This document shows, piece after piece, positions 6,246 through 16,484 of a stretch of 64,000 bases of DNA. The notes beneath the pieces are model-generated. The model searched no databases. It saw only the letters and a program-made list of their open reading frames with translations, and was not told where the DNA came from. Every line of letters begins with the position of its first letter. Position 1 is the first letter of the stretch. A program made the translations under genes and the position numbers. The DNA is from Myxococcota bacterium (GTDB lineage Bacteria; Myxococcota_A; UBA796; UBA2385): contig JBIJDH010000001.1 of assembly GCA_044344255.1 (NCBI GenBank), positions 192,001 to 256,000 on the forward strand, in the 5' to 3' direction.

Positions 6246-6356
6246 ATGACCATCCAGCAGCTCACGGACGGCGCCTGGCGGCTCGGACTGATCAGGGCGA
6301 CAGACGGCCCCCTTTCACTCAAGGTGGCGCTCGACGGCGTCGGCAGCAGGCGATGA
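6246..6356 (+). CDS. Small 36-aa ORF or gene remnant
   Basis: GAGGGAG RBS before the ATG; stop overlaps the SGNH start (ATGA). Confidence 0.3.
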   Translation: MTIQQLTDGAWRLGLIRATDGPLSLKVALDGVGSRR

Positions 6357-7444
6357 GCGCGCCGCCGCCACCACCGCCTCCCCCGGCGAGGCGGGGCTCC
6401 CCGCTACAAGCCCGCCTGCTGCTGGGGCTCGTCGCCGCCCTCGGGTTCTTCGCAGCCGGGGAGGTCCTCGCTCGCCTGCTCCTGCCCGCAGGGCCGCCGG
6501 TCATGGGCATCGAAATGCAAGAGGACCCCGACGTCCTCTGGACGCTCACCACCTCCGGCGACCATCCGCCCCCCAACCGACTTGGCCTCCGGAGCCCGGA
6601 GCTCGGGCCACGCGGGGAGGTGACCGGGCGCTTCCTCACCCTCGGAGACTCCTCCGTGTACGGCGACACGGTGGGAGACGACCAGGTCTTCTCTGCCGTC
6701 GCCGCGCGCTCGCTCTCCGCTATCGGCCCCCGAGTCGACGCGGCGAACGGTGGGATCCCCGGCTACTCCACCGTTCAGGCCACCATCCTCTACACCCGCG
6801 TCCACGAGGCGGTCGCGGCCGACGTCGTCGTCATCGCCACGCTCTGGAGTGACGCCTCCGCCGGCGAAGAGACAGACGTCGACCACATCCGACGCGTGCG
6901 CTCCGACCTCGGCTTCTGGGGCCCGGTCAACCGAACCTTCCGGTCTGCGCAGCGCCGCTCTGCCCTGTTTGTGTTCCTCCGGCAGGTGCGCCACGGGAAC
7001 CTGTCCCTCCGCGCACCGGAGCCCCCGCCGCGCGAGAAGGTGGGCTGGGTGCACGCCGACGCCGAACTCCCCTTCGGGACCGTCGCCCGGGTGCCCGTGG
7101 AGGCCTATCGCCAGAACCTCGACGCGCTGGTGGGCCAGGTGCGGGGCGACGGAGCGGAGCCGGCCTTCCTGCTCCTGCCCCACCCCTACGACGACCTGGG
7201 ACAGACCCTCCCGGAGCGGCTCCTCGCCTATCGACAGGCGATGCGCGCGTCGGCCGCGGCCCTGTCGGTGCCCCTTGTGGATGGAGAGGCATGGTTCAAG
7301 GGCCACCCCAGCCGCGCCGGCCGATTCTCCGATGACATCCACCCCAACACAGAGGGGCACGCCCAGATCGCCGCTGCGTTGCTCTCCACCATCGGGGAGA
7401 CCCCCTCCTTACGCGCGCGGCTCGGCCGACGGGCGCCCCCATGA
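6353..7444 (+). CDS. SGNH/GDSL hydrolase family protein with N-terminal TM anchor
   Basis: LGDSSVYG (block I), NGGIPGYST (block II), DDIHPN.EGH (block V). Confidence 0.85.
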   Translation: MSAPPPPPPPPARRGSPLQARLLLGLVAALGFFAAGEVLARLLLPAGPPVMGIEMQEDPDVLWTLTTSGDHPPPNRLGLRSPELGPRGEVTGRFLTLGDSSVYGDTVGDDQVFSAVAARSLSAIGPRVDAANGGIPGYSTVQATILYTRVHEAVAADVVVIATLWSDASAGEETDVDHIRRVRSDLGFWGPVNRTFRSAQRRSALFVFLRQVRHGNLSLRAPEPPPREKVGWVHADAELPFGTVARVPVEAYRQNLDALVGQVRGDGAEPAFLLLPHPYDDLGQTLPERLLAYRQAMRASAAALSVPLVDGEAWFKGHPSRAGRFSDDIHPNTEGHAQIAAALLSTIGETPSLRARLGRRAPP

Positions 7445-7591: not shown

Positions 7592-8941
7592 TCAGCCGGG
7601 CCGGCCACGCGGTGCCATTGGCGGCCCTCTCGCTTCTGCCTCCGCCGTGTGCTGGAGAAAGGAGGCGGACTCCTCGAGCCCACGGAGGAGGGTGCTCTCC
7701 GCTCGGGGATCCCCGGCGAGCAACAGAAGTCGGCCCTCGAGGGCCGTGAGGATGGCGGCCCGGTTGGGGCAGGCCCAATCCTGGGCGTGCTGGGGCAGCG
7801 CGCTCCGCACGATGGCCGCCGCCTCGAGGTAAGCGCCCTGTCGAGCCAGGTGGCGGGTGGCGGTGTTCCGGAGCTGCTTGATCGCATAGTAGCGGATCCC
7901 GCCGGGCTCCCGATCGAGCTCCGCGGCGCGCGACTGCACGATAGCCGGGACCTCGGCGGGCGAGGCATGTCCGATCTCTTCCGCTGTGGCGTCGATCCAG
8001 GGGCGATGCGCCGGGTCGTCCGCGCCCAAGCGAGACAAGCTCCCGATCGCGCGCGGCCCCGCAAAGCCCGCCGTGTCGATGAGGCTATCTCCTGTACAGA
8101 GCACCCCGAGCTCTGTCGCGAGGGGCGGCCCTGGCGGGCGTGGGGGCAGCAGCCGGGACGGCGCAAGAGGGTCGGGCACGGCGCCTCCGGCGAGCGCCTC
8201 CGCCGCAGCGGCGATGCCCAAGGCCTCCCGGCGAACCTCGTCCGCCGTCCAGTAGTCCCACGGCTCGGTTGGCACGAAAGGATCGGCGCTGTCGGCATAC
8301 GCCTGCACCAGCGCGACCCGCAAACGATGCCGAGACTCGAAGTCCTCAAAGGCGTCCGGGTCAAGGCCTGATGGAGCCTGGACCCGCCGAGCGTCCGCGG
8401 CGAGGGCCATGGCCTCCACCCCCACCGCGGCGCCCGCACGGGCTCGTAGGACCAGCTCCACCCAGCGGGCGCGCAGGGAGGAGACCGGCCCCTCCGCGAT
8501 CGGCACGGTGCCCCCCTGACCCAGCGCCTGGCACCAGGTCGCGCCGTTCTCTGCGGCGGCGACGAGGGCGGCCTCGATGGGGGGGCCCACCGAGCCGCTC
8601 AATCGCAGCGCACGGAGGGACCCGACGGAGCGAGAGTAACGCTCGGCGCAGGCGGTCCAGTCTCCGCGCATCGCCGCAGCGCGCGCGAGATCACGGCCGA
8701 GCGCCGCCTCGTGTCCAAGCACCCGCATGCGCACATCGTCCCAGCTCGCCTCACCGTAGCCGTGGGGGTTGTCCTGTAGACCGTGGAGCGTCGCCCAGTG
8801 GGGATCGTCCTCTGGGATGACAAGGCTCTGGCCGCCCGGGCGGGGCGGGACCGCCGCGCCGGAGGGGGAGCCTGATTGTTTCGCGCCATCCAGGGTGCAG
8901 GAGAGGAGGCCGACGAGGAGGAGGGTGGAGAGGCCGACCAT
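7592..8941 (-). CDS. Hypothetical helical lipoprotein
   Basis: LLVGLLSC lipobox; 449-aa ORF with normal composition. Confidence 0.6.
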   Translation of the reverse strand: MVGLSTLLLVGLLSCTLDGAKQSGSPSGAAVPPRPGGQSLVIPEDDPHWATLHGLQDNPHGYGEASWDDVRMRVLGHEAALGRDLARAAAMRGDWTACAERYSRSVGSLRALRLSGSVGPPIEAALVAAAENGATWCQALGQGGTVPIAEGPVSSLRARWVELVLRARAGAAVGVEAMALAADARRVQAPSGLDPDAFEDFESRHRLRVALVQAYADSADPFVPTEPWDYWTADEVRREALGIAAAAEALAGGAVPDPLAPSRLLPPRPPGPPLATELGVLCTGDSLIDTAGFAGPRAIGSLSRLGADDPAHRPWIDATAEEIGHASPAEVPAIVQSRAAELDREPGGIRYYAIKQLRNTATRHLARQGAYLEAAAIVRSALPQHAQDWACPNRAAILTALEGRLLLLAGDPRAESTLLRGLEESASFLQHTAEAEARGPPMAPRGRPG

Positions 8942-8987
8942 GCGCCGAGGCTACCACTCCCCAGCCCGCTGTGGTAGCCTCCATTTT

Positions 8988-10406
8988 ATGTTGTCCCTCG
9001 TCACCCTGCTGGCCTGTCAGGCCCCCGACCTCGACCCGCCATCCACCGCCCCCGCCCGCCCTGACATCCGCGCCGCGCCAACCCCGCCGGAGCCGCTGGC
9101 GGCACCGGAGCCAGCAGACCCTTCCACCTTCACCATGCAGGGCCAGGGCGGCCCGAACATCCTCTGGATCACCCTGGACACCGTGTCCGCCGGGCACCTC
9201 GCGGCCTATGGCGGGCGGGTGCCCCTGCGCAGCATCGAGGGGCTGGGCGCGGTTCAGGTGAAGACCGCCATCTCCAACTTTCCCGAGACGGCCCTCTCCC
9301 ACTGGTCGATGCTCACCGGCGTGCTGCCGGAGGTGCATGGAAATGTGCCGGGTGTGGGACAATCGCGGTACTCCGGCCCCACATTTCAGGAGCTCGCGCG
9401 TGTCCGCGGTTACGCCACCGGCGCCTTCATTGGCGGACTGACCCTGCGAGACCAGCAGACTGGCCTCTCGCGTGGCTTCGACCACTATGACGACGACCTC
9501 GCTCCCGGACAGTCGCTCCGCCCTGGCCCCGACACCGTAGCCGCGGCGCGACGCTGGCTACACGAACAGCGGCAGCCTTGGTTTGCATTTGTCCACCTAT
9601 TTGATGCACATCTGCCGTACTCTCCCTCTGAGCCCGGACGATTCGACCCAAGCTACCTTGGATCTGTTGACGGAACGGAGGCCAGCCTCGCGCAGTGGAG
9701 GGACAGCCTCGGAGCGCCTCCGCCTCGGGAGCTCGAACATGCGATCGCGCTCTACGACTCCGAGATCGTAGACGCGGACGCCGCCCTCGCCCCGCTCTTC
9801 TCCGAGCTTGGCCCCAACGACATCGTCATCGTCACCGCGGATCACGGTGAGTCCTTCGCCCATGGTTATTATTTCAACCACCGGGCGGTCCTGTACGAGG
9901 ACACCCTCCACGTGCCGCTCTTCATTCGCGCCCCCGGACTGGCGCCTGCAGCGGTGGAAGGCCTGTTCGCGCTCATTGACCTCGCTCCGACCGTCGCTGA
10001 GCTGGCAGGCTGGGAGGTCCAAGCCCCTTGGATGGGGCAGAGCCGGGTCGGCCTCCTGCGTGGTCAGGGTGGGGGAGCGCCGGAGGTCTGGTCTCGGACC
10101 GACCCTTGGCTCCCGCTCATCTCGGGCGAGCCCGGCACGCGCCTCTCCCGCCGGACGGCCACCGATAAGCTGATCATCGAGGCCGATGGCAGCGCCTGCC
10201 GCTTTGACCTCGTGGAGGACCCTCGGGAGCTCAACGGGCGATGCTCTTTGGATGCCGTCGCCGAGAGCGAAGCCTACCTCGCGCTCATCAAGGAGATGGC
10301 AAAGTTTCAGCGTGAGCTCCCCGAGCGAATGGGGCCGAACCCCCAAGGAGAGATGCTGCGGCAGCTCGGCTACGTGGACCACCACACAGAGCGCGCGAAA
10401 AACTGA
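8988..10406 (+). CDS. Sulfatase/alkaline-phosphatase superfamily lipoprotein
   Basis: PNILWITLDT, HLFDAHLPY, TADHGE and HVPLFI motifs; LLAC lipobox. Confidence 0.85.
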   Translation: MLSLVTLLACQAPDLDPPSTAPARPDIRAAPTPPEPLAAPEPADPSTFTMQGQGGPNILWITLDTVSAGHLAAYGGRVPLRSIEGLGAVQVKTAISNFPETALSHWSMLTGVLPEVHGNVPGVGQSRYSGPTFQELARVRGYATGAFIGGLTLRDQQTGLSRGFDHYDDDLAPGQSLRPGPDTVAAARRWLHEQRQPWFAFVHLFDAHLPYSPSEPGRFDPSYLGSVDGTEASLAQWRDSLGAPPPRELEHAIALYDSEIVDADAALAPLFSELGPNDIVIVTADHGESFAHGYYFNHRAVLYEDTLHVPLFIRAPGLAPAAVEGLFALIDLAPTVAELAGWEVQAPWMGQSRVGLLRGQGGGAPEVWSRTDPWLPLISGEPGTRLSRRTATDKLIIEADGSACRFDLVEDPRELNGRCSLDAVAESEAYLALIKEMAKFQRELPERMGPNPQGEMLRQLGYVDHHTERAKN

Positions 10407-10552
10407 ATTCGCCGCATGGTGAACTCAGAATTTTTAACTCAATGGATAGGGTCACACCAGGCGCTGATCGCCCGGAGCGGGTCACGGTGCTGCCTCGGCC
10501 TGCGCTTCGCCGGATGGGGCTCTGGTAGACTACCCGCCGAAAGCCGGAGACC

Positions 10553-10912
10553 GTGGTGGGCATCAAGGACCTCTTCTCTTCCTGGTCGCGGAGACCCAAC
10601 CCGGAGCCGGTGGCTCCAGCCCCCGACGCCGTAGCAGATGTTGCCGCAGGTTCCGACATCCTTGGCCTGCTCACCGAGCGCGTGGTGGTGCTCTCGGGCG
10701 GCCGCCTTCGTGCGGCAGAGCTCGATCCCCGGGCCCGCCTCCTCGACCGGGGGTGGCTGGACTCCATCACCCTGGTCCAGCTCCTTGTGTTTGTGGAAGA
10801 ACGTTGGGCGGTTCGGGTGCCGGAGGCGCGGGTGGCAGGGCGACTCGGTACGCTATCTGCCCTGGCGGAACACATCGCCTCAAACCGCCCCCAGGAGCAC
10901 CCGAATGGTTGA
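10553..10912 (+). CDS. Acyl carrier protein (DltC-like)
   Basis: LLDRGWLDSITLVQLLVFVEERW phosphopantetheine-Ser motif; start uncertain. Confidence 0.8.
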   Translation: MVGIKDLFSSWSRRPNPEPVAPAPDAVADVAAGSDILGLLTERVVVLSGGRLRAAELDPRARLLDRGWLDSITLVQLLVFVEERWAVRVPEARVAGRLGTLSALAEHIASNRPQEHPNG

Positions 10913-11969
10913 TCAACAAGGCGGTACGTTGATGGAGTGGGCGCCCCACCTGCGTCGGTTGGGGATGAGAGATCTGGCACCGGGGCGGATCTCGGAGGTG
11001 GAGCTCTGGAAGCACCTCGGAGATCGGCAGTGGCAGCGCATCGCAGACCATATCGGCCAGGACCCTGCCGAGCTCGTCTCCGAGGACGGCGAGCGCCTCT
11101 ATGCCACCTTTGCCACGGTCGAGCTGCGCTTCCCGCCTGCCTGTCCCCTCCATGCCTTTGGAGAGGGGGTGTGGATGGGCGAGCGGCACAGCGTCCGGGC
11201 GTATGCCCGCCGCTTCATCGAGGGGCTCGTGCTCATGGGCCGAGGGGCGGTCCCCGAGCTGCCAGCGGCGGGGATCACGAGCCGGGCCGACCTCGAGGCC
11301 CTGGAGCAGCCCTGGGCGGTGCTCACCAACACCTTCGTGGCCCGTCCGGGCGGGAACAGCCGCCTCGTGGTGCGGGAGCCCGTCGGAATGGAGTCCTGGA
11401 CAGGCCCGATACTCGGCGCGCTGCCGCCGGACCTCGCCCATCAGCAGCTGGTCGCCGGTGAGGGGCCGATCGAGCCCCCACCCGCCCGGGCCATCCCGCT
11501 CGGCAAGCCCTTCACCGAGCGGGCGCCAGTGGAGCCCGACACCGATTTGAACGGCGCGGGTCTGCTCTATTTTGCACGGTATATCGGTATCTTCGACCGC
11601 TCCATGCGCATCTTCCTCTCCGAGGGTCTGTCACGGCCGGTCTCGGCCAACCTCCTCGACTGCCTGCTCACCCGTCGGCGGCGGGTGTACTTCTACGCGA
11701 ACGCAGAGCCCACCGACACCCTCCGCGTGGTGGGTCGGGTCTGGCTCAGCCCCCCCTCGGCTCCCCGCCGCAGCTTCGGGCGCGAGGAGCGGTTCACCCT
11801 CCATGGCCAGCTTGACCTCTATCGCGAGGCGGATCGGGTCTGGATGGCCACCACCGTCGTGGACAAGGTGCTGGCCATCCCCGAGGCCGACCGCTCCCTC
11901 CGTTTGGAGGCCGACCGGCTCCTGAGAGAGTCCGGTGTAACGCAGGTTCCCACGGGTTTTGGCCCTTGA
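10905..11969 (+). CDS. LnmK-like bifunctional acyltransferase/decarboxylase (double hot-dog fold)
   Basis: SEVELWKHLGD.QW, GERLYATF and DLNGAGLLYFARY motifs; overlaps the ACP stop. Confidence 0.75.
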   Translation: MVDQQGGTLMEWAPHLRRLGMRDLAPGRISEVELWKHLGDRQWQRIADHIGQDPAELVSEDGERLYATFATVELRFPPACPLHAFGEGVWMGERHSVRAYARRFIEGLVLMGRGAVPELPAAGITSRADLEALEQPWAVLTNTFVARPGGNSRLVVREPVGMESWTGPILGALPPDLAHQQLVAGEGPIEPPPARAIPLGKPFTERAPVEPDTDLNGAGLLYFARYIGIFDRSMRIFLSEGLSRPVSANLLDCLLTRRRRVYFYANAEPTDTLRVVGRVWLSPPSAPRRSFGREERFTLHGQLDLYREADRVWMATTVVDKVLAIPEADRSLRLEADRLLRESGVTQVPTGFGP

Positions 11970-12967
11970 TAAACGCGGAGTCATGGCTGGCTCCCGGCCG
12001 CTCCGCCCGGGGGTCCCTCCTGCTCCTGCTGCTCGCCCTGTTGGCCGCCCTGCTGCCCCGTGTCCCCATGCGGGAGCCCTACGACCCCGTCTGGCGGGAC
12101 CGCGTCGCCGCTGCGGAGCCCGAGATCGTCATCCTCGGAAATTGCCTCGTGTCCTGGTTTGAACCCGATGTGCTGGGGCAGCGGCTCGACACCCGGGCCG
12201 CCTTTCCCCTGAGCGTGGGAGGCTCCTATGCCGATGAGTGGTATGCCCTGCTCTCTCACGCGGTGCTCCAGGGAGAGGCCCCTCCCTCTCTCGTGATCCT
12301 CCCCTTTGTGGGCGAGGAGTTCAGCGAGTCTGAGGCGGCGACCGATCTCTGGGCGCGCCGTCGGGTGGCGCGATGGATTCCCGCGGAGGCCCCGGCAGAC
12401 CCGCGGTGGGAGGCGGTGGAGGCGGGTCGGGAGGGCGCTCTGTCCCGCTGGATCGGCCAGCTCTCCCTCCTGCTCTTTCGCCCGACCCTCTGGCGAATGG
12501 AGGGCATGATGGTGCCGCGCCGCTTCGGCAGCGCGCTCGCGAGCCCCGGGACGCTGTTCTCGTCGGGACGATCGTCGGGTCCTGGTGCCGAGAGCCTCGT
12601 CGAGGAGCGTCTCGCCGCCGCGCATTTTCGGAGGGACCTGCGCCTGATGATGCCGCAGGCCGCAGACGAGGACCTCCCCGGCGCGGAGCGGGTCTCCCGT
12701 TCAGCCCTCCCCGCCCTGGCGGCGCTCGTCCACGAGCGGGGATCTCGCCTCCTCCTCATCCGGTTCCCCTCCGAGTCCGGTGATTCCCGCAACGCGGATG
12801 CTGCTTTCGCCGAGGCGGCGCTTCAATGGTCGGCGGAGCAGGGCATCTTCAGCCTGGATGCCACGGCGGACCCTGTCCTCTCCCCTCTCCTTCAATCGGA
12901 CCCCCTCTCCGGGCGTCGGGCCTTCAGCGAGCGGGTGGCAGAGCGGCTTCGGGGCCGCCCCCGATGA
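11966..12967 (+). CDS. SGNH-like/DltD-AlgJ-type periplasmic protein, degenerate
   Basis: N-terminal TM; IVILGNC where GxS would be expected; lies between ACP/LnmK and MBOAT with 4-nt overlaps. Confidence 0.5.
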   Translation: MINAESWLAPGRSARGSLLLLLLALLAALLPRVPMREPYDPVWRDRVAAAEPEIVILGNCLVSWFEPDVLGQRLDTRAAFPLSVGGSYADEWYALLSHAVLQGEAPPSLVILPFVGEEFSESEAATDLWARRRVARWIPAEAPADPRWEAVEAGREGALSRWIGQLSLLLFRPTLWRMEGMMVPRRFGSALASPGTLFSSGRSSGPGAESLVEERLAAAHFRRDLRLMMPQAADEDLPGAERVSRSALPALAALVHERGSRLLLIRFPSESGDSRNADAAFAEAALQWSAEQGIFSLDATADPVLSPLLQSDPLSGRRAFSERVAERLRGRPR

Positions 12968-14337
12968 GCGTCCAGAGCGCTGCGTTTGCCGGCGCCTTCA
13001 CCCTGCTGCTGCTGATTCACGCCAGTCTGCCCCCACGGTGGCAGCGCGGCCTCCTCCTCCTCTCGAGCCTTGGCTTTATCGCCAGCGGGGGCTGGCCGGG
13101 GCTCGTCCTTCTGCTGCTCGTCATCTTCTGCTGCTGGCTCGGCGGGCTGCTCATCGAGGCTCAGCCCCAGCGCCCAGGCCTGGTCTTTGGGCTCAGCGCC
13201 GGCCTTGTCCTGGCGCCGCTGCTGCTCGCCCGCCTGCCAGGCGCCCTCGGGGAGGTTGTGACGGCGGGCCTCCCGGCCCCCATCGGGCTCTCCTTCTTTA
13301 CGCTTCAGGCCTTCGCCTACCTGCAGGACATCCGACGGGGTGACCTCCAGGCTCGTCGGAGCCTCCTCGATGTCGCCCTGCTCATCTCCTTCTTCCCCAA
13401 GCTCGCCTCGGGACCGCTCGAGAGGCCGGCCGATCTCTTGGAGCAGCTCGACCAGCCGCGCCCCCGCCTCCCCGCCCACCTCGAAGCTGCCCTCCTGCTC
13501 CTCCTCTGGGGCTTCTTCAAGAAGCTCGTGCTGGCTGACAACCTGGCCCCCATCGCGGACAAGGTCTATGCGCTTCGTGATCCCACCTTTCCGCTGATGC
13601 TCGGGGGCTCCACCGCCTATCTATTACAGGTATATGCCGATTTTTCGGGATGGACCGACATTGCTCGTGGGCTCGCCCTCCTGCTGGGCATCCGCCTCAG
13701 CGAGAACTTCCGGGCCCCCTACCTCTCCACCTCGCTCACCGAATTCTGGCGTCGCTGGCATATGAGCTTCATGAGCTTCCTGCGCGACCGGGTCTACCTG
13801 CCCCTGGCCGGCTCCCGACCGACAGCCTCCCGCGCTGCCATCTCGCTGGTCGCGACCTTCCTGCTGAGCGGCCTCTGGCATGGGGCCTCCCTCAACTACC
13901 TACTCTGGGGGCTCTACAACGGGCTCATCGTCGCGATGGAGCGGGGGTGGTCCCGGTACCCGAAACCCGCCTGGGCGGCCGGGAAGATCTGGACCGTCGT
14001 AAGGGTGTTATGGACCTTGTTCCTCGTCGATGTCGGCTTCGTGATCTTTCGGGAGACCGGCGGCCTGCCCTGGATCGGCTGGGAGCTCAGCAGTTGGACG
14101 AAGGCGGCCCCCCCCGCCGACTGGTTGTTAGGCCGCTACCTCCTCGCCCTCTGCCTGCTCTACGGCGCCCCCCTGCTCGGCTGGGACCTCTTCCGCGCCC
14201 TCATCGAGCGGGATGGAGCCCTCCCGCCCTGGACGGGGCGATTCGTGCCGCGCCTGCTGGTAGCGGCCCTGCTCCTGGTGGCCTGTCTCACCTTCGCCGC
14301 AGATCGCCCGGCCTCTTTTGTGTATGCAACCTTTTGA
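12964..14337 (+). CDS. MBOAT family O-acyltransferase (AlgI/DltB-like)
   Basis: PIGLSFFTLQ, KKLVLADNL, YADFSG, EFWRRWHMS and SGLWHGA motifs. Confidence 0.92.
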   Translation: MSVQSAAFAGAFTLLLLIHASLPPRWQRGLLLLSSLGFIASGGWPGLVLLLLVIFCCWLGGLLIEAQPQRPGLVFGLSAGLVLAPLLLARLPGALGEVVTAGLPAPIGLSFFTLQAFAYLQDIRRGDLQARRSLLDVALLISFFPKLASGPLERPADLLEQLDQPRPRLPAHLEAALLLLLWGFFKKLVLADNLAPIADKVYALRDPTFPLMLGGSTAYLLQVYADFSGWTDIARGLALLLGIRLSENFRAPYLSTSLTEFWRRWHMSFMSFLRDRVYLPLAGSRPTASRAAISLVATFLLSGLWHGASLNYLLWGLYNGLIVAMERGWSRYPKPAWAAGKIWTVVRVLWTLFLVDVGFVIFRETGGLPWIGWELSSWTKAAPPADWLLGRYLLALCLLYGAPLLGWDLFRALIERDGALPPWTGRFVPRLLVAALLLVACLTFAADRPASFVYATF

Positions 14338-14433
14338 CCGTCCCCAGGGCGACGACGCCGGAGCACTTCGACAACCTGCCCGCCTCCCGGGGTGGGCAAG
14401 AATGCGGTAGGCTCCGCCCCCCAAGGATGCCCG

Positions 14434-15813
14434 ATGCTGCCGCTTCCCGTGCCATCTACCCTGCTCATCTTGCCCCTGCTCGCCTCGCTCCTCGCCTGCT
14501 CGGGAGGGTCCGCCCCAACTGGGTCCTCCCCGGGGTCTGGCCCCCCATCGGGAGGGCCGCCACCCGGCGCTCTACCCGGACCTCGGCCTCCGGGCGGACC
14601 GTCGGGGGCCCCTCCGCCCCCGCCGAATGGGCCTGTCGGTCAGTCGGGGGCGGCGATGCAGGACCCCTCGGGCTTCCCCGTCTTTCACGAGTGGCCCGCG
14701 CCCCAGGGACCGTCGATTGAGGCGCAGGGCGAGTGGACAGCGGCGATCAAGCTCTCGGAGACGGCGGGCGGCGGCTACCGCCCCCAGGTCGGCATCTCCG
14801 CCACCGACCTGCTGCACGCCATTTATTATGAGCGCACAAGCGAGGGCGATATCATCCGTCACCGCAGCTCAACCGATGGCCTGCGTTGGACGCCGCCCTC
14901 CCCCCTTGGACTGGACAAGGACCGCAACTGGGGCCCGGATATCGTCGTGCGCCCCGATGCCACGGTGGTGGTCGTCTTCGATCATGCGAAGCCCGACTTC
15001 TCCAGCCGCGGCTTCCTCACCCTCCTGAAAGACGGTGTATGGACCACCCCCGAGCCGCTCACCCCCGACGACGGCGGAGAGATCGGCAGCGGTCACGTCG
15101 CGAATGGGCCGGGGGAGGAGCTCGTTTATGTCTTCATCGGCAAGAAGATGAGCCCCGAGTATCACTTCGCTGCGCATTGGCGCTGGTATCGGGACGGCGC
15201 ATGGAGCGATATTCAGGACTTCTCCGATGGGAGCGCGGATGCCTGGCATACCAATGTCGAGCGCCGACCCGATGGCTCCGTGCTGGCCGGCTGGGATGTT
15301 GGGACAGGCGGAGCCGAGACCACGCTCTATGTCGCCGACGGGCGGGACGGAAAATTTGGCCCCGCCGATAACATCACCGCGACCAGCCACCCGGGCGAAC
15401 GGGTTCACTTTGCCTTCGGAAAAGACGGCGTCGACCATCTCACCTGGTTTCATAAGGAGCAGGGGAAACCCACCCATATCTACACGCGCTCCGGCCACCC
15501 CGGGGCCTGGGGAGAGACCGCCGAGCCCTCCAAGGGGTATGGGGGGTATCATTTTGACCCCGAGATCGAGGTGAACAAGGACGGCATCCTCTGCCTGGTC
15601 TGGGGATGGGACAACGGCAGCGCCGCCGAGATGGTCTATAGCCTCAACCGAGGTTCGGGCTGGGAGCCTCCGAAGCGTATCGCCAACATCGGTTGGGGCA
15701 AGCCTGGACTCGCCTCGCTGGTGGCGGACAGCCAGGGTGGCTTCCATGTGATCTGGAACCAGGGCATTCGTGGCAAGAACGATGTCTATGTCTCTTCCCT
15801 GGTGGTCCATTGA
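14434..15813 (+). CDS. Lipoprotein with Pro-rich linker and BNR/sialidase-like beta-propeller
   Basis: LLAC lipobox; Asp-box-like STDGLRW and SLNRGSGW. Confidence 0.65.
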   Translation: MLPLPVPSTLLILPLLASLLACSGGSAPTGSSPGSGPPSGGPPPGALPGPRPPGGPSGAPPPPPNGPVGQSGAAMQDPSGFPVFHEWPAPQGPSIEAQGEWTAAIKLSETAGGGYRPQVGISATDLLHAIYYERTSEGDIIRHRSSTDGLRWTPPSPLGLDKDRNWGPDIVVRPDATVVVVFDHAKPDFSSRGFLTLLKDGVWTTPEPLTPDDGGEIGSGHVANGPGEELVYVFIGKKMSPEYHFAAHWRWYRDGAWSDIQDFSDGSADAWHTNVERRPDGSVLAGWDVGTGGAETTLYVADGRDGKFGPADNITATSHPGERVHFAFGKDGVDHLTWFHKEQGKPTHIYTRSGHPGAWGETAEPSKGYGGYHFDPEIEVNKDGILCLVWGWDNGSAAEMVYSLNRGSGWEPPKRIANIGWGKPGLASLVADSQGGFHVIWNQGIRGKNDVYVSSLVVH

Positions 15814-16037
15814 CCAAGAGAGGCGGAGGTCCGAAGGCGCTGCCTGAATCCACCTTGGCCACCCGGGAATTGCAGCTCGACTCGCACGAGATCCGACCTG
15901 CGGGGTCCCACGAGCACTCGGAGCGCCCCCGCGCCCGAGCAGAAGACCCCGGTCTTCAACGCCGGTCACCCCGGCTACTCCTCCCCAGTCCGACCTCTGG
16001 CTCCAGCACCTCCTACCGCAGGTCCGGCCCCAGCCCC

Positions 16038-16484
16038 TCAGTCCACCGGGGCCCCCTTCAGCCCCAGTCGGGCGACGAGCCCCTGCACGGTGCGCCGCAG
16101 GGCCGCGCGCTCCTCCTCGCCGAGGTAGCCGAAGACCTCGGCGTCGTTACGGTCCGCCTCGGCCGCGAGCGTGGGGACGAGGCTCCGCCCAGGGTCCGTG
16201 AGAGCGACCCGCAGCGCCCGGCCATCCGAGGGGTCGCCCCGGACCGCGACGAGCCCCTTGGCCGCGAGGCGGTCGAGCAGCTTGGACACCGCCCCTCGGG
16301 TCAGCCCCAGCCGCTGCGCGAGCTGGCTGGGCATGATCCCCTCGTCCCCGTAGAGCGCCCTCAAGACGACCCACTCGGCCACGGTGACGTCGTGGGGATC
16401 GAGCCGCTCCCGAAAGGACTGCGAGACGTGGTTCGACACCAGGCGGAGCCAGTAGCCGAGGTGGTCTTCGAGCCCGCTGACCAT
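16038..16484 (-). CDS. MarR family transcriptional regulator
   Basis: HLGYWLRLVSNHVS; wHTH LTRGAVSKLLDRL; DGRA...LT..G. Confidence 0.9.
   Translation of the reverse strand: MVSGLEDHLGYWLRLVSNHVSQSFRERLDPHDVTVAEWVVLRALYGDEGIMPSQLAQRLGLTRGAVSKLLDRLAAKGLVAVRGDPSDGRALRVALTDPGRSLVPTLAAEADRNDAEVFGYLGEEERAALRRTVQGLVARLGLKGAPVD

Follow-up and report, generated by a model that had tools for sequence, protein, structure and literature searches.

Bacterial systems that pair a membrane-bound O-acyltransferase (MBOAT) with a protein of the SGNH fold are now sorted into two kinds. Dlt systems use a carrier protein, an adenylating loader and DltX, whereas systems of the second kind carry out O-acetylation, are fed by acyl-coenzyme A (acyl-CoA) and have a fused shuttle. 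In the portions of Anderson et al. (J Biol Chem 2025; PMC12148441) drawn on here, PatA has a C-terminal FXYXXF motif and acetylates itself at the invariant Tyr within it; the Dlt pathway carries this motif on the microprotein DltX, and in both cases the Tyr serves as the acyl-Tyr shuttle. PatA/AlgI-type O-acetylation systems are stated in those portions to have no carrier protein and to use acyl-CoA directly. The LnmK enzyme of leinamycin biosynthesis acts on an acyl carrier protein (ACP); according to the review PMC11350588, its Tyr62 takes the propionyl group and its Phe65 stabilises the enolate. Here, we describe a four-gene operon at positions 10553–14337, on the forward strand, of a 64,000-nucleotide stretch of DNA from a Myxococcota bacterium (GenBank assembly GCA_044344255.1, contig JBIJDH010000001.1, positions 192,001–256,000), referred to below as “the window”. 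This operon and its relatives, found in at least five named phyla, join a fused-shuttle MBOAT to a carrier protein and to a loader of a third type, one related to LnmK.

We consider it fairly probable that the operon encodes a carrier-fed MBOAT–SGNH relay, which would move a short acyl group, most probably propionyl from methylmalonyl-CoA, onto a molecule of the cell envelope. The proposal draws on gene content, folds, conserved residues, gene linkage and analogy with described systems; from these we infer the chemistry throughout, as well as which group is carried and what would receive it. A literature search returned no paper that combines an LnmK-type loader with an MBOAT, and none of the LnmK papers listed, judged by title, deals with envelope acylation.

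Operon layout and related loci

The window is ~70% G+C and lies on contig C18 of an 8.18-Mb genome assembled in 83 contigs. As an earlier note on this DNA had described, its 10553–14337 segment holds four overlapping open reading frames (ORFs) on the forward strand, and each neighbouring pair, read from the DNA, shares 4–8 nt. The first encodes an ACP of 119 amino acids (10553–10912) and the second an LnmK-family double hot-dog protein of 354 amino acids (10905–11969). They are followed by the gene for a transmembrane-anchored SGNH-fold protein of 333 amino acids, referred to here as P3 (11966–12967), and by the gene for an MBOAT of 457 amino acids (12964–14337). The TGA stop codon of the ACP gene (10910–10912) lies past the ATG of the LnmK-like gene at 10905. 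The stop codon of the LnmK-like gene (11967–11969) overlaps the TTG start of P3 at 11966 (TTGA, 11966–11969), and the stop codon of P3 (12965–12967) similarly overlaps the MBOAT ATG at 12964 (ATGA, 12964–12967). A GGAG sequence is positioned 7 nt 5′ of the ACP start codon (GTG, 10553), and another 7 nt 5′ of the LnmK-like ATG. Read from the sequence, this is an arrangement of four translationally coupled genes.

For comparison, we assembled 48 loci with LnmK-like genes from species-representative genomes and 80 from metagenomes, and searched their six-frame, stop-to-stop ORFs with hidden Markov models (HMMs) built for this analysis. Loci were assigned to tiers by score against the family profile of the window and dereplicated at 90%. 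Tier A, the window's own subfamily, comprises 50 loci in 40 groups; tier B, a sister group, comprises 15 loci in 14 groups; tier C holds the remaining 63 loci: 38 metagenomic ones and 25, mostly actinobacterial, that derive from the genome collection. On many contigs the flanking DNA is too short for neighbours to be judged; counts are also given for those groups in which each flank reaches at least 3 kb.

An LnmK-type loader and its carrier protein

The ACP matches PF00550 at 23.8 bits (cut-off, 20.8; E = 5e-5). Its phosphopantetheine serine is Ser71 (codon 10763–10765), in the motif G-W-L-D-S, and G67, D70 and S71 are invariant across 11 ACPs of related cassettes. With 19.5 bits against a cut-off of 68 for the DltC equivalog model, it is not a DltC equivalog. 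A further lead, the NCBIfam model for the ornithine-lipid ACP, was rejected: the match reaches 24 bits against a cut-off of 130, and the OlsH/OlsI pathway, in the part of its description drawn on here, has no LnmK-like or MBOAT step.

The protein encoded by the second gene matches the LnmK family model TIGR04098 at 106.2 bits (105.2 bits in the genome search), a narrow margin over the cut-off of 100. Among PDB sequences, LnmK is the sole match below an E-value of 0.1, at 1e-3 for the single sequence and 1e-7 for a profile of 21 sequences; the next match stands at 0.14. An AlphaFold2 model (mean predicted local distance difference test score [pLDDT], 87.8) gives the same answer, with LnmK structures occupying Foldseek ranks 1–7 at E-values of 4e-18 to 4e-16 and target-normalised TM scores of 0.81–0.83, at a structural-alignment identity to LnmK of 17–18%. 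The two motifs singled out in the earlier note, RLYATF and DLNGAGLLYF, are present and are the most conserved stretches of the LnmK-like family. In a profile alignment to LnmK (4hzo), the LnmK sequence P-T-Y-L-A-F stands opposite R-L-Y-A-S-F of the family, which places LnmK Tyr62 at Y66 of the window protein (codon 11100–11102) and LnmK Phe65 at F69. Of the 49 tier-A rows, all but one retain the equivalent of Tyr66 (48/49), as do all 13 tier-B rows. The second gene thus encodes an LnmK-family double hot-dog protein, a predicted decarboxylating acyl-CoA:ACP acyltransferase with Tyr66 as its predicted acyl acceptor.

Next after LnmK in the Foldseek ranking are acyl-ACP thioesterases (E = 5e-11; TM score, ≤0.66). 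The double hot-dog protein could on this basis be a thioesterase that releases or edits the acyl group on the ACP, with the ACP loaded by an enzyme encoded elsewhere in the genome. Enzymes of the AMP-binding type are available for that purpose, with 18 matches across the 8.18 Mb, and an AMP-binding gene adjoins the cassette in the near-identical tier-A loci L018 and L065 and in L022 and L085 of tier B. However, LnmK has an E-value seven orders of magnitude lower than the thioesterases and a clearly higher TM score, it alone appears among the PDB sequence matches below 0.1, and its acyl-accepting Tyr is almost always retained. L018 and L065 form a single group, so that a ligase adjoins the cassette in only 1/40 tier-A groups; none of the 18 matches falls within the window, and more than 300 kb separate it from the nearest one on its contig. 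We regard the thioesterase explanation as very improbable, and the protein models as LnmK, as the earlier note had anticipated.

That note had also reported neither a DltA-like ligase nor a polyketide synthase (PKS) in the window, and both absences hold up. None of the 33 ketosynthase matches in the genome is on contig C18, and the window ORFs scanned contain no PKS domain; HMG-CoA synthase was not searched for separately. Large genes for PKSs and non-ribosomal peptide synthetases are present on other contigs of the genome, e.g., as open frames of ~7000 amino acids on C17.

The MBOAT and its shuttle motif

The fourth protein matches PF03062 at an E-value of 1e-29. Against the DltB model TIGR04091, it reaches 149 bits where the cut-off is 375, and is not a DltB equivalog. 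H266, H306 (codon 13879–13881), F452, Y454 and F457 are invariant in 15 MBOAT sequences. The last three of these residues belong to the very C-terminus, F452-V-Y454-A-T-F457 (14317–14334; Tyr codon, 14323–14325), which is an FXYXXF motif. The motif is a constant feature of the linked enzymes: of the MBOATs at LnmK-linked loci, 19 have a complete C-terminus, and each of these ends in F-[ILV]-Y-x-x-F.

The earlier note had presented the locus as a Dlt-like acylation operon. The architecture of carrier, MBOAT and SGNH protein bears this out, but a DltB-like MBOAT does not form part of it, the fused FXYXXF motif being of the PatA/AlgI type. Because the motif is fused to the MBOAT and a carrier protein adjoins, we read the locus as a PatA/AlgI-type MBOAT–SGNH pair that would be fed by a carrier, rather than as a Dlt operon with a swapped loader.

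The SGNH-fold partner

P3 has no match in Pfam, NCBIfam or the PDB at the sequence level, and a word-indexed sequence search returned only P3 itself. A full HMMER search over 1.84 billion representatives found 33 remote relatives. A structure model built on 26 sequences (pLDDT, 80.5) shows one N-terminal transmembrane helix followed by an SGNH fold, and the SGNH domain is predicted to face the periplasm. Consistent with this assignment, some members of the P3 alignment have weak matches to Lipase_GDSL_2 (five), DUF1574 (three) or AlgX (one), and in a protein atlas P3 lies near SGNH/DUF1574 clusters. The earlier description of P3 as a membrane-anchored SGNH-like protein is thus borne out for fold and anchor, but not for the catalytic residues.

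In 21 of the 26 aligned sequences, SGNH block I reads G-[NSD]-S and block V reads [DSN]-H. In P3 and its four closest relatives (P0030–P0033), block I instead reads G-[NS]-C, and block V reads D-P, D-A or N-A. The P3 protein of the window has G-N-C60 at the nucleophile position (Cys60 codon, 12143–12145) and D-P at block V, without the catalytic His. Within this five-member clade, whose members are 23–34% identical, C60, G58, G85, G86 and His98 are invariant, and His98 is absent from the other relatives. All other alignable P3-like proteins at LnmK-linked loci keep the Ser and/or the His (14 rows from 12 loci, some of which cover one block only). A metagenome scan with an alignment of the Cys clade found no locus. 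As far as the alignments go, the replacement of Ser by Cys together with the missing catalytic His, in P3 and its four closest relatives, is new here.

Two outcomes are compatible with this pattern: either the final step of the relay runs via a cysteine thioester here, or P3 has turned into an adaptor. On the second of these, P3 would be a non-catalytic pseudo-SGNH protein and the last transfer would be made by another protein. A candidate is encoded at 6353–7444 on the forward strand, 3 kb upstream of the operon: a complete, canonical SGNH protein (Lipase_GDSL_2, E = 3e-14) with an N-terminal hydrophobic or transmembrane anchor, G-D-S at block I and D-D-I-H at block V. Such a protein could supply the catalytic residues that P3 is without. 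GDSL genes also recur near the cassette in L012, L019 and L020, and the Ser and His missing from P3 are those kept in most of its relatives, including the LnmK-linked ones. However, a gene on the opposite strand lies between the upstream SGNH gene and the operon, and the invariance of Cys60 in 5/5 clade members, along with G58, G85, G86 and the clade-specific His98, suggests selection on the site. An adaptor role is a possibility to be taken seriously, though we doubt it.

Conservation and distribution of the linkage

The ACP gene is a regular neighbour of the LnmK-like gene in the window's subfamily, adjoining it in 31 of the 35 tier-A groups with at least 400 nt of upstream sequence. In tier B, the ACP HMM detects one in 11 groups and Pfam finds further ones that are fused: the LnmK-like proteins of L021, L022 and L026 carry the ACP at their N-terminus. 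In tier C, the ACP HMM gives a single weak match (L028).

An MBOAT gene is present in 16/40 tier-A groups (6/12 of those with at least 3 kb on both flanks) and in 5/14 tier-B groups (3/6 of those so flanked), but in none of the 63 tier-C loci. The genome of the window has seven MBOAT matches in 8.18 Mb, from which we estimate that an MBOAT would fall within 6 kb of ~1% of random positions; the linkage, as counted from these gene neighbourhoods, is far above chance. A quick maximum-likelihood tree was built from 115 rows; the MBOAT-linked ones, 22 in number, are all contained in one 62-row clade (support, 87). The window belongs to a 49-row part of this clade (support, 99), on a long branch (0.92) and apart from both actinobacterial clades. 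Named loci come from Acidobacteriota, Planctomycetota, Myxococcota, Thermodesulfobacteriota, Gemmatimonadota, Pseudomonadota and Verrucomicrobiota; the MBOAT linkage recurs in at least five named phyla, and the position and orientation of the MBOAT gene differ between them. The link to MBOAT genes that the earlier note had proposed to survey is thus seen in several phyla and in roughly one of every two relatives with full flanks.

An alternative is that the two pairs of genes are separate functions that only share an operon. In that case, the MBOAT, with P3, would take acyl-CoA directly, and the ACP/LnmK-like cassette would provide the primer for a lipid or small polyketide that is assembled elsewhere. 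The PatA/AlgI build of the MBOAT is in keeping with this idea, since PatA uses acetyl-CoA (PMC12148441, in the portions drawn on here), and several cassettes occur with ketosynthases: the ACP/LnmK-like pair stands behind genes for FabH-like enzymes (ketosynthase III) in L013, L054, L057 and L077, and divergent from one in L017, with no MBOAT in the DNA covered by these five loci. L017 also has three radical-SAM genes. Of the 12 fully flanked tier-A groups, six have no MBOAT. Nevertheless, the overlaps of 4–8 nt between all four genes, the lack of any ketosynthase on the window's contig and the recurrence of the MBOAT linkage in shuffled gene orders, across at least five named phyla, speak for a common function. 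The same can be said of L021 and L026, where the ACP::LnmK fusion is placed between the MBOAT–SGNH pair and methylmalonyl-CoA mutase genes. Separate functions therefore seem quite unlikely to us.

A third setting is seen in a Myxococcota subclade (L006/L059/L063, L009 and L015), where the LnmK-like gene occurs with an MMPL transporter and a LolA-like protein; no ACP adjoins it and no MBOAT is present. Those loci whose flank reaches far enough also carry a sulfatase, a sugar aminotransferase and an oxidoreductase–hexapeptide fusion. Judged by its gene neighbourhoods, the loader cassette is modular, and the MBOAT–SGNH pair is its most frequent partner, not its sole one.

An LnmK-like gene was found in none of 60 related genomes from the same family or order (34 of them with ≥90% completeness and ≤5% contamination). 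Third-position G+C in the three operon genes scored is 0.82–0.84, compared with 0.87–0.98 in most other genes of the window. Both observations fit acquisition of the operon by horizontal transfer, which is possible. The stretch is present in 20 DNA runs from lake and freshwater metagenomes; no RNA runs are listed as containing the operon.

Substrate and proposed relay

The best indication of the substrate comes from distant relatives. In the tier-B verrucomicrobial locus L026 (3224–10824), the gene order is MBOAT, P3-like, ACP::LnmK-like fusion, methylmalonyl-CoA mutase small subunit, mutase large subunit and MeaB; L021 (1–3913), also verrucomicrobial, has the same order up to the end of its contig. 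L026 carries a second MBOAT gene on the other strand (10854–12371). Downstream of the LnmK-like gene in L016 come genes for a carboxyltransferase and an acyl-CoA dehydrogenase. The genome of the window has two methylmalonyl-CoA mutase matches, elsewhere than at the operon. Because of the mutase and carboxyltransferase neighbours in these three distant loci, together with the known substrate of LnmK, methylmalonyl-CoA, and hence propionyl, is our best guess.

In the proposed relay, the LnmK-type enzyme would decarboxylate methylmalonyl-CoA, hold the propionyl group on Tyr66 and load it onto the phosphopantetheine arm at Ser71 of the ACP. The invariant His of the MBOAT would then shift the acyl group from the ACP thioester to the enzyme's own Tyr454 (FVYATF), at the outer face of the membrane. 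From there, the Tyr454 ester would be handed to the membrane-anchored P3, presumably to Cys60, and P3 would pass the acyl group to an envelope acceptor.

The same relay could carry another group, if the LnmK-like protein decarboxylates malonyl-CoA or a different 2-substituted malonyl-CoA to give acetyl-ACP or, e.g., butyryl-ACP. The identity of only 17–18% to LnmK and the long branch of the window protein leave room for this, and the carboxyltransferase of L016 could yield either malonyl-CoA or methylmalonyl-CoA. By contrast, two relatives (L021 and L026) directly adjoin methylmalonyl-CoA mutase genes, and LnmK is specific for (2R)-methylmalonyl-CoA, according to the title of a reference in PMC11350588. 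For acetyl, moreover, no detour would be needed, since PatA, in the portions of PMC12148441 drawn on, takes acetyl-CoA. A group other than propionyl is, in our estimation, unlikely.

Several observations weigh against a carrier-fed propionyl relay as a whole. P3 is without the Ser and the His that other LnmK-linked P3-like proteins keep, and it may not be a catalyst. The mutase or carboxyltransferase neighbours occur in three loci only, none of them close to the window protein, and the substrate of the latter may differ because of its long branch. PatA-type MBOATs with the same C-terminal motif take acetyl-CoA directly, as stated in the portions of PMC12148441 drawn on. Six of the 12 fully flanked tier-A groups have no MBOAT within 6 kb, and in some loci the cassette is coupled to FabH-like or MMPL/LolA genes instead. 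Vertical conservation is uninformative because the LnmK-like gene was not found in the 60 related genomes. Lastly, nothing in the window names the acceptor, and the surface glycan put forward in the earlier note would be a supposed one.

A broader form of the carrier-fed relay would be a widespread, undescribed pathway of Gram-negative-type envelope propionylation that starts from methylmalonyl-CoA and uses a decarboxylating loader of the polyketide type, a dedicated carrier and a PatA/AlgI-type MBOAT, and in which the SGNH partner has, in this lineage, switched to a Cys nucleophile that forms a periplasmic thioester. We think it rather unlikely that this holds in all its parts. If it does, the periplasmic Cys thioester would be better matched to an amine acceptor (N-acylation) than to a sugar (O-acylation).

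Should the carrier-fed relay be correct, LnmK-type enzymes would gain a role outside polyketide synthesis, and short-chain envelope acylation would extend past acetyl and D-alanyl groups. The operon would offer a tractable system in which to study how MBOATs choose between CoA and carrier-protein donors, and P3, as a naturally occurring Cys-for-Ser variant, could shed light on the mechanism of the last transfer.

Neighbouring genes

Upstream of the operon, at 8769–10406 on the forward strand, is a gene for a sulfatase-family protein of the alkaline-phosphatase superfamily (PF00884, E = 2e-25) with a lipoprotein-like N-terminus; its membership in the operon is uncertain. By eye, the C/S-x-P-x-R signature is not at the usual sulfatase position. 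In L006/L063, L009 and L019, too, sulfatase-family genes lie no more than 6 kb from the LnmK-like gene. The 146-nt intergenic gap between this gene and the operon (10407–10552, forward strand) is locally A+T-richer, and may hold a promoter; a scan with the sigma-70 consensus found no promoter-like sites at 8500–16200.

Downstream, 55 nt from the end of the MBOAT gene, a forward-strand gene at 14392–15813 encodes a lipoprotein-like protein with a long Pro/Gly-rich linker, whose membership in the operon is likewise uncertain. Its only match is a weak one to BNR_2 (E = 0.005, under the cut-off), and ORF clustering showed no relative of it at the other LnmK-like loci.

Comparison with known systems

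In its membrane components, the operon most resembles PatA/PatB, AlgI/AlgJ/AlgX and WssH/WssI, as these are described in the portions of PMC12148441 drawn on. It shares with them an MBOAT that has an invariant His and a fused C-terminal FXYXXF Tyr, and a separate SGNH-fold partner behind an N-terminal membrane anchor. It differs from them in how the acyl group would be supplied, since the known systems are stated in those portions to work without a carrier and with acyl-CoA, whereas here the pair is translationally coupled to a dedicated ACP and a loader of the LnmK type. It also differs in the SGNH partner itself, which has Cys in place of Ser and is without the catalytic His.

The likeness to the Dlt system (DltA, DltC, DltB, DltX and DltD; D-alanylation of teichoic acid) lies in the predicted path of the acyl group, from a carrier thioester to an MBOAT, through a Tyr relay and on to an outer SGNH-fold protein, as far as the Dlt path is laid out in the source portions used. 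The components, however, are not those of Dlt. There is no adenylating DltA in the window, and neither the ACP nor the MBOAT comes near the equivalog cut-off of its Dlt counterpart (DltC and DltB, respectively). It is the MBOAT, not a DltX microprotein, that bears the shuttle motif; the four overlapping genes leave no room for a DltX-type gene between them, and no search for small ORFs was made beyond these junctions. As acyl donor, a CoA ester would take the place of an amino acid.

With LnmK/LnmL, the methylmalonyl-CoA:ACP acyltransferase/decarboxylase and ACP of leinamycin biosynthesis, the operon shares the family HMM, the nearest structure, the equivalents of Tyr62 and Phe65 and an adjacent stand-alone ACP. 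The 49-row clade of the window is nonetheless apart from both actinobacterial clades, and the setting is a different one: in place of a polyketide beta-branching context, with no ketosynthase on the contig, the loader and its carrier are followed here by an MBOAT–SGNH pair.

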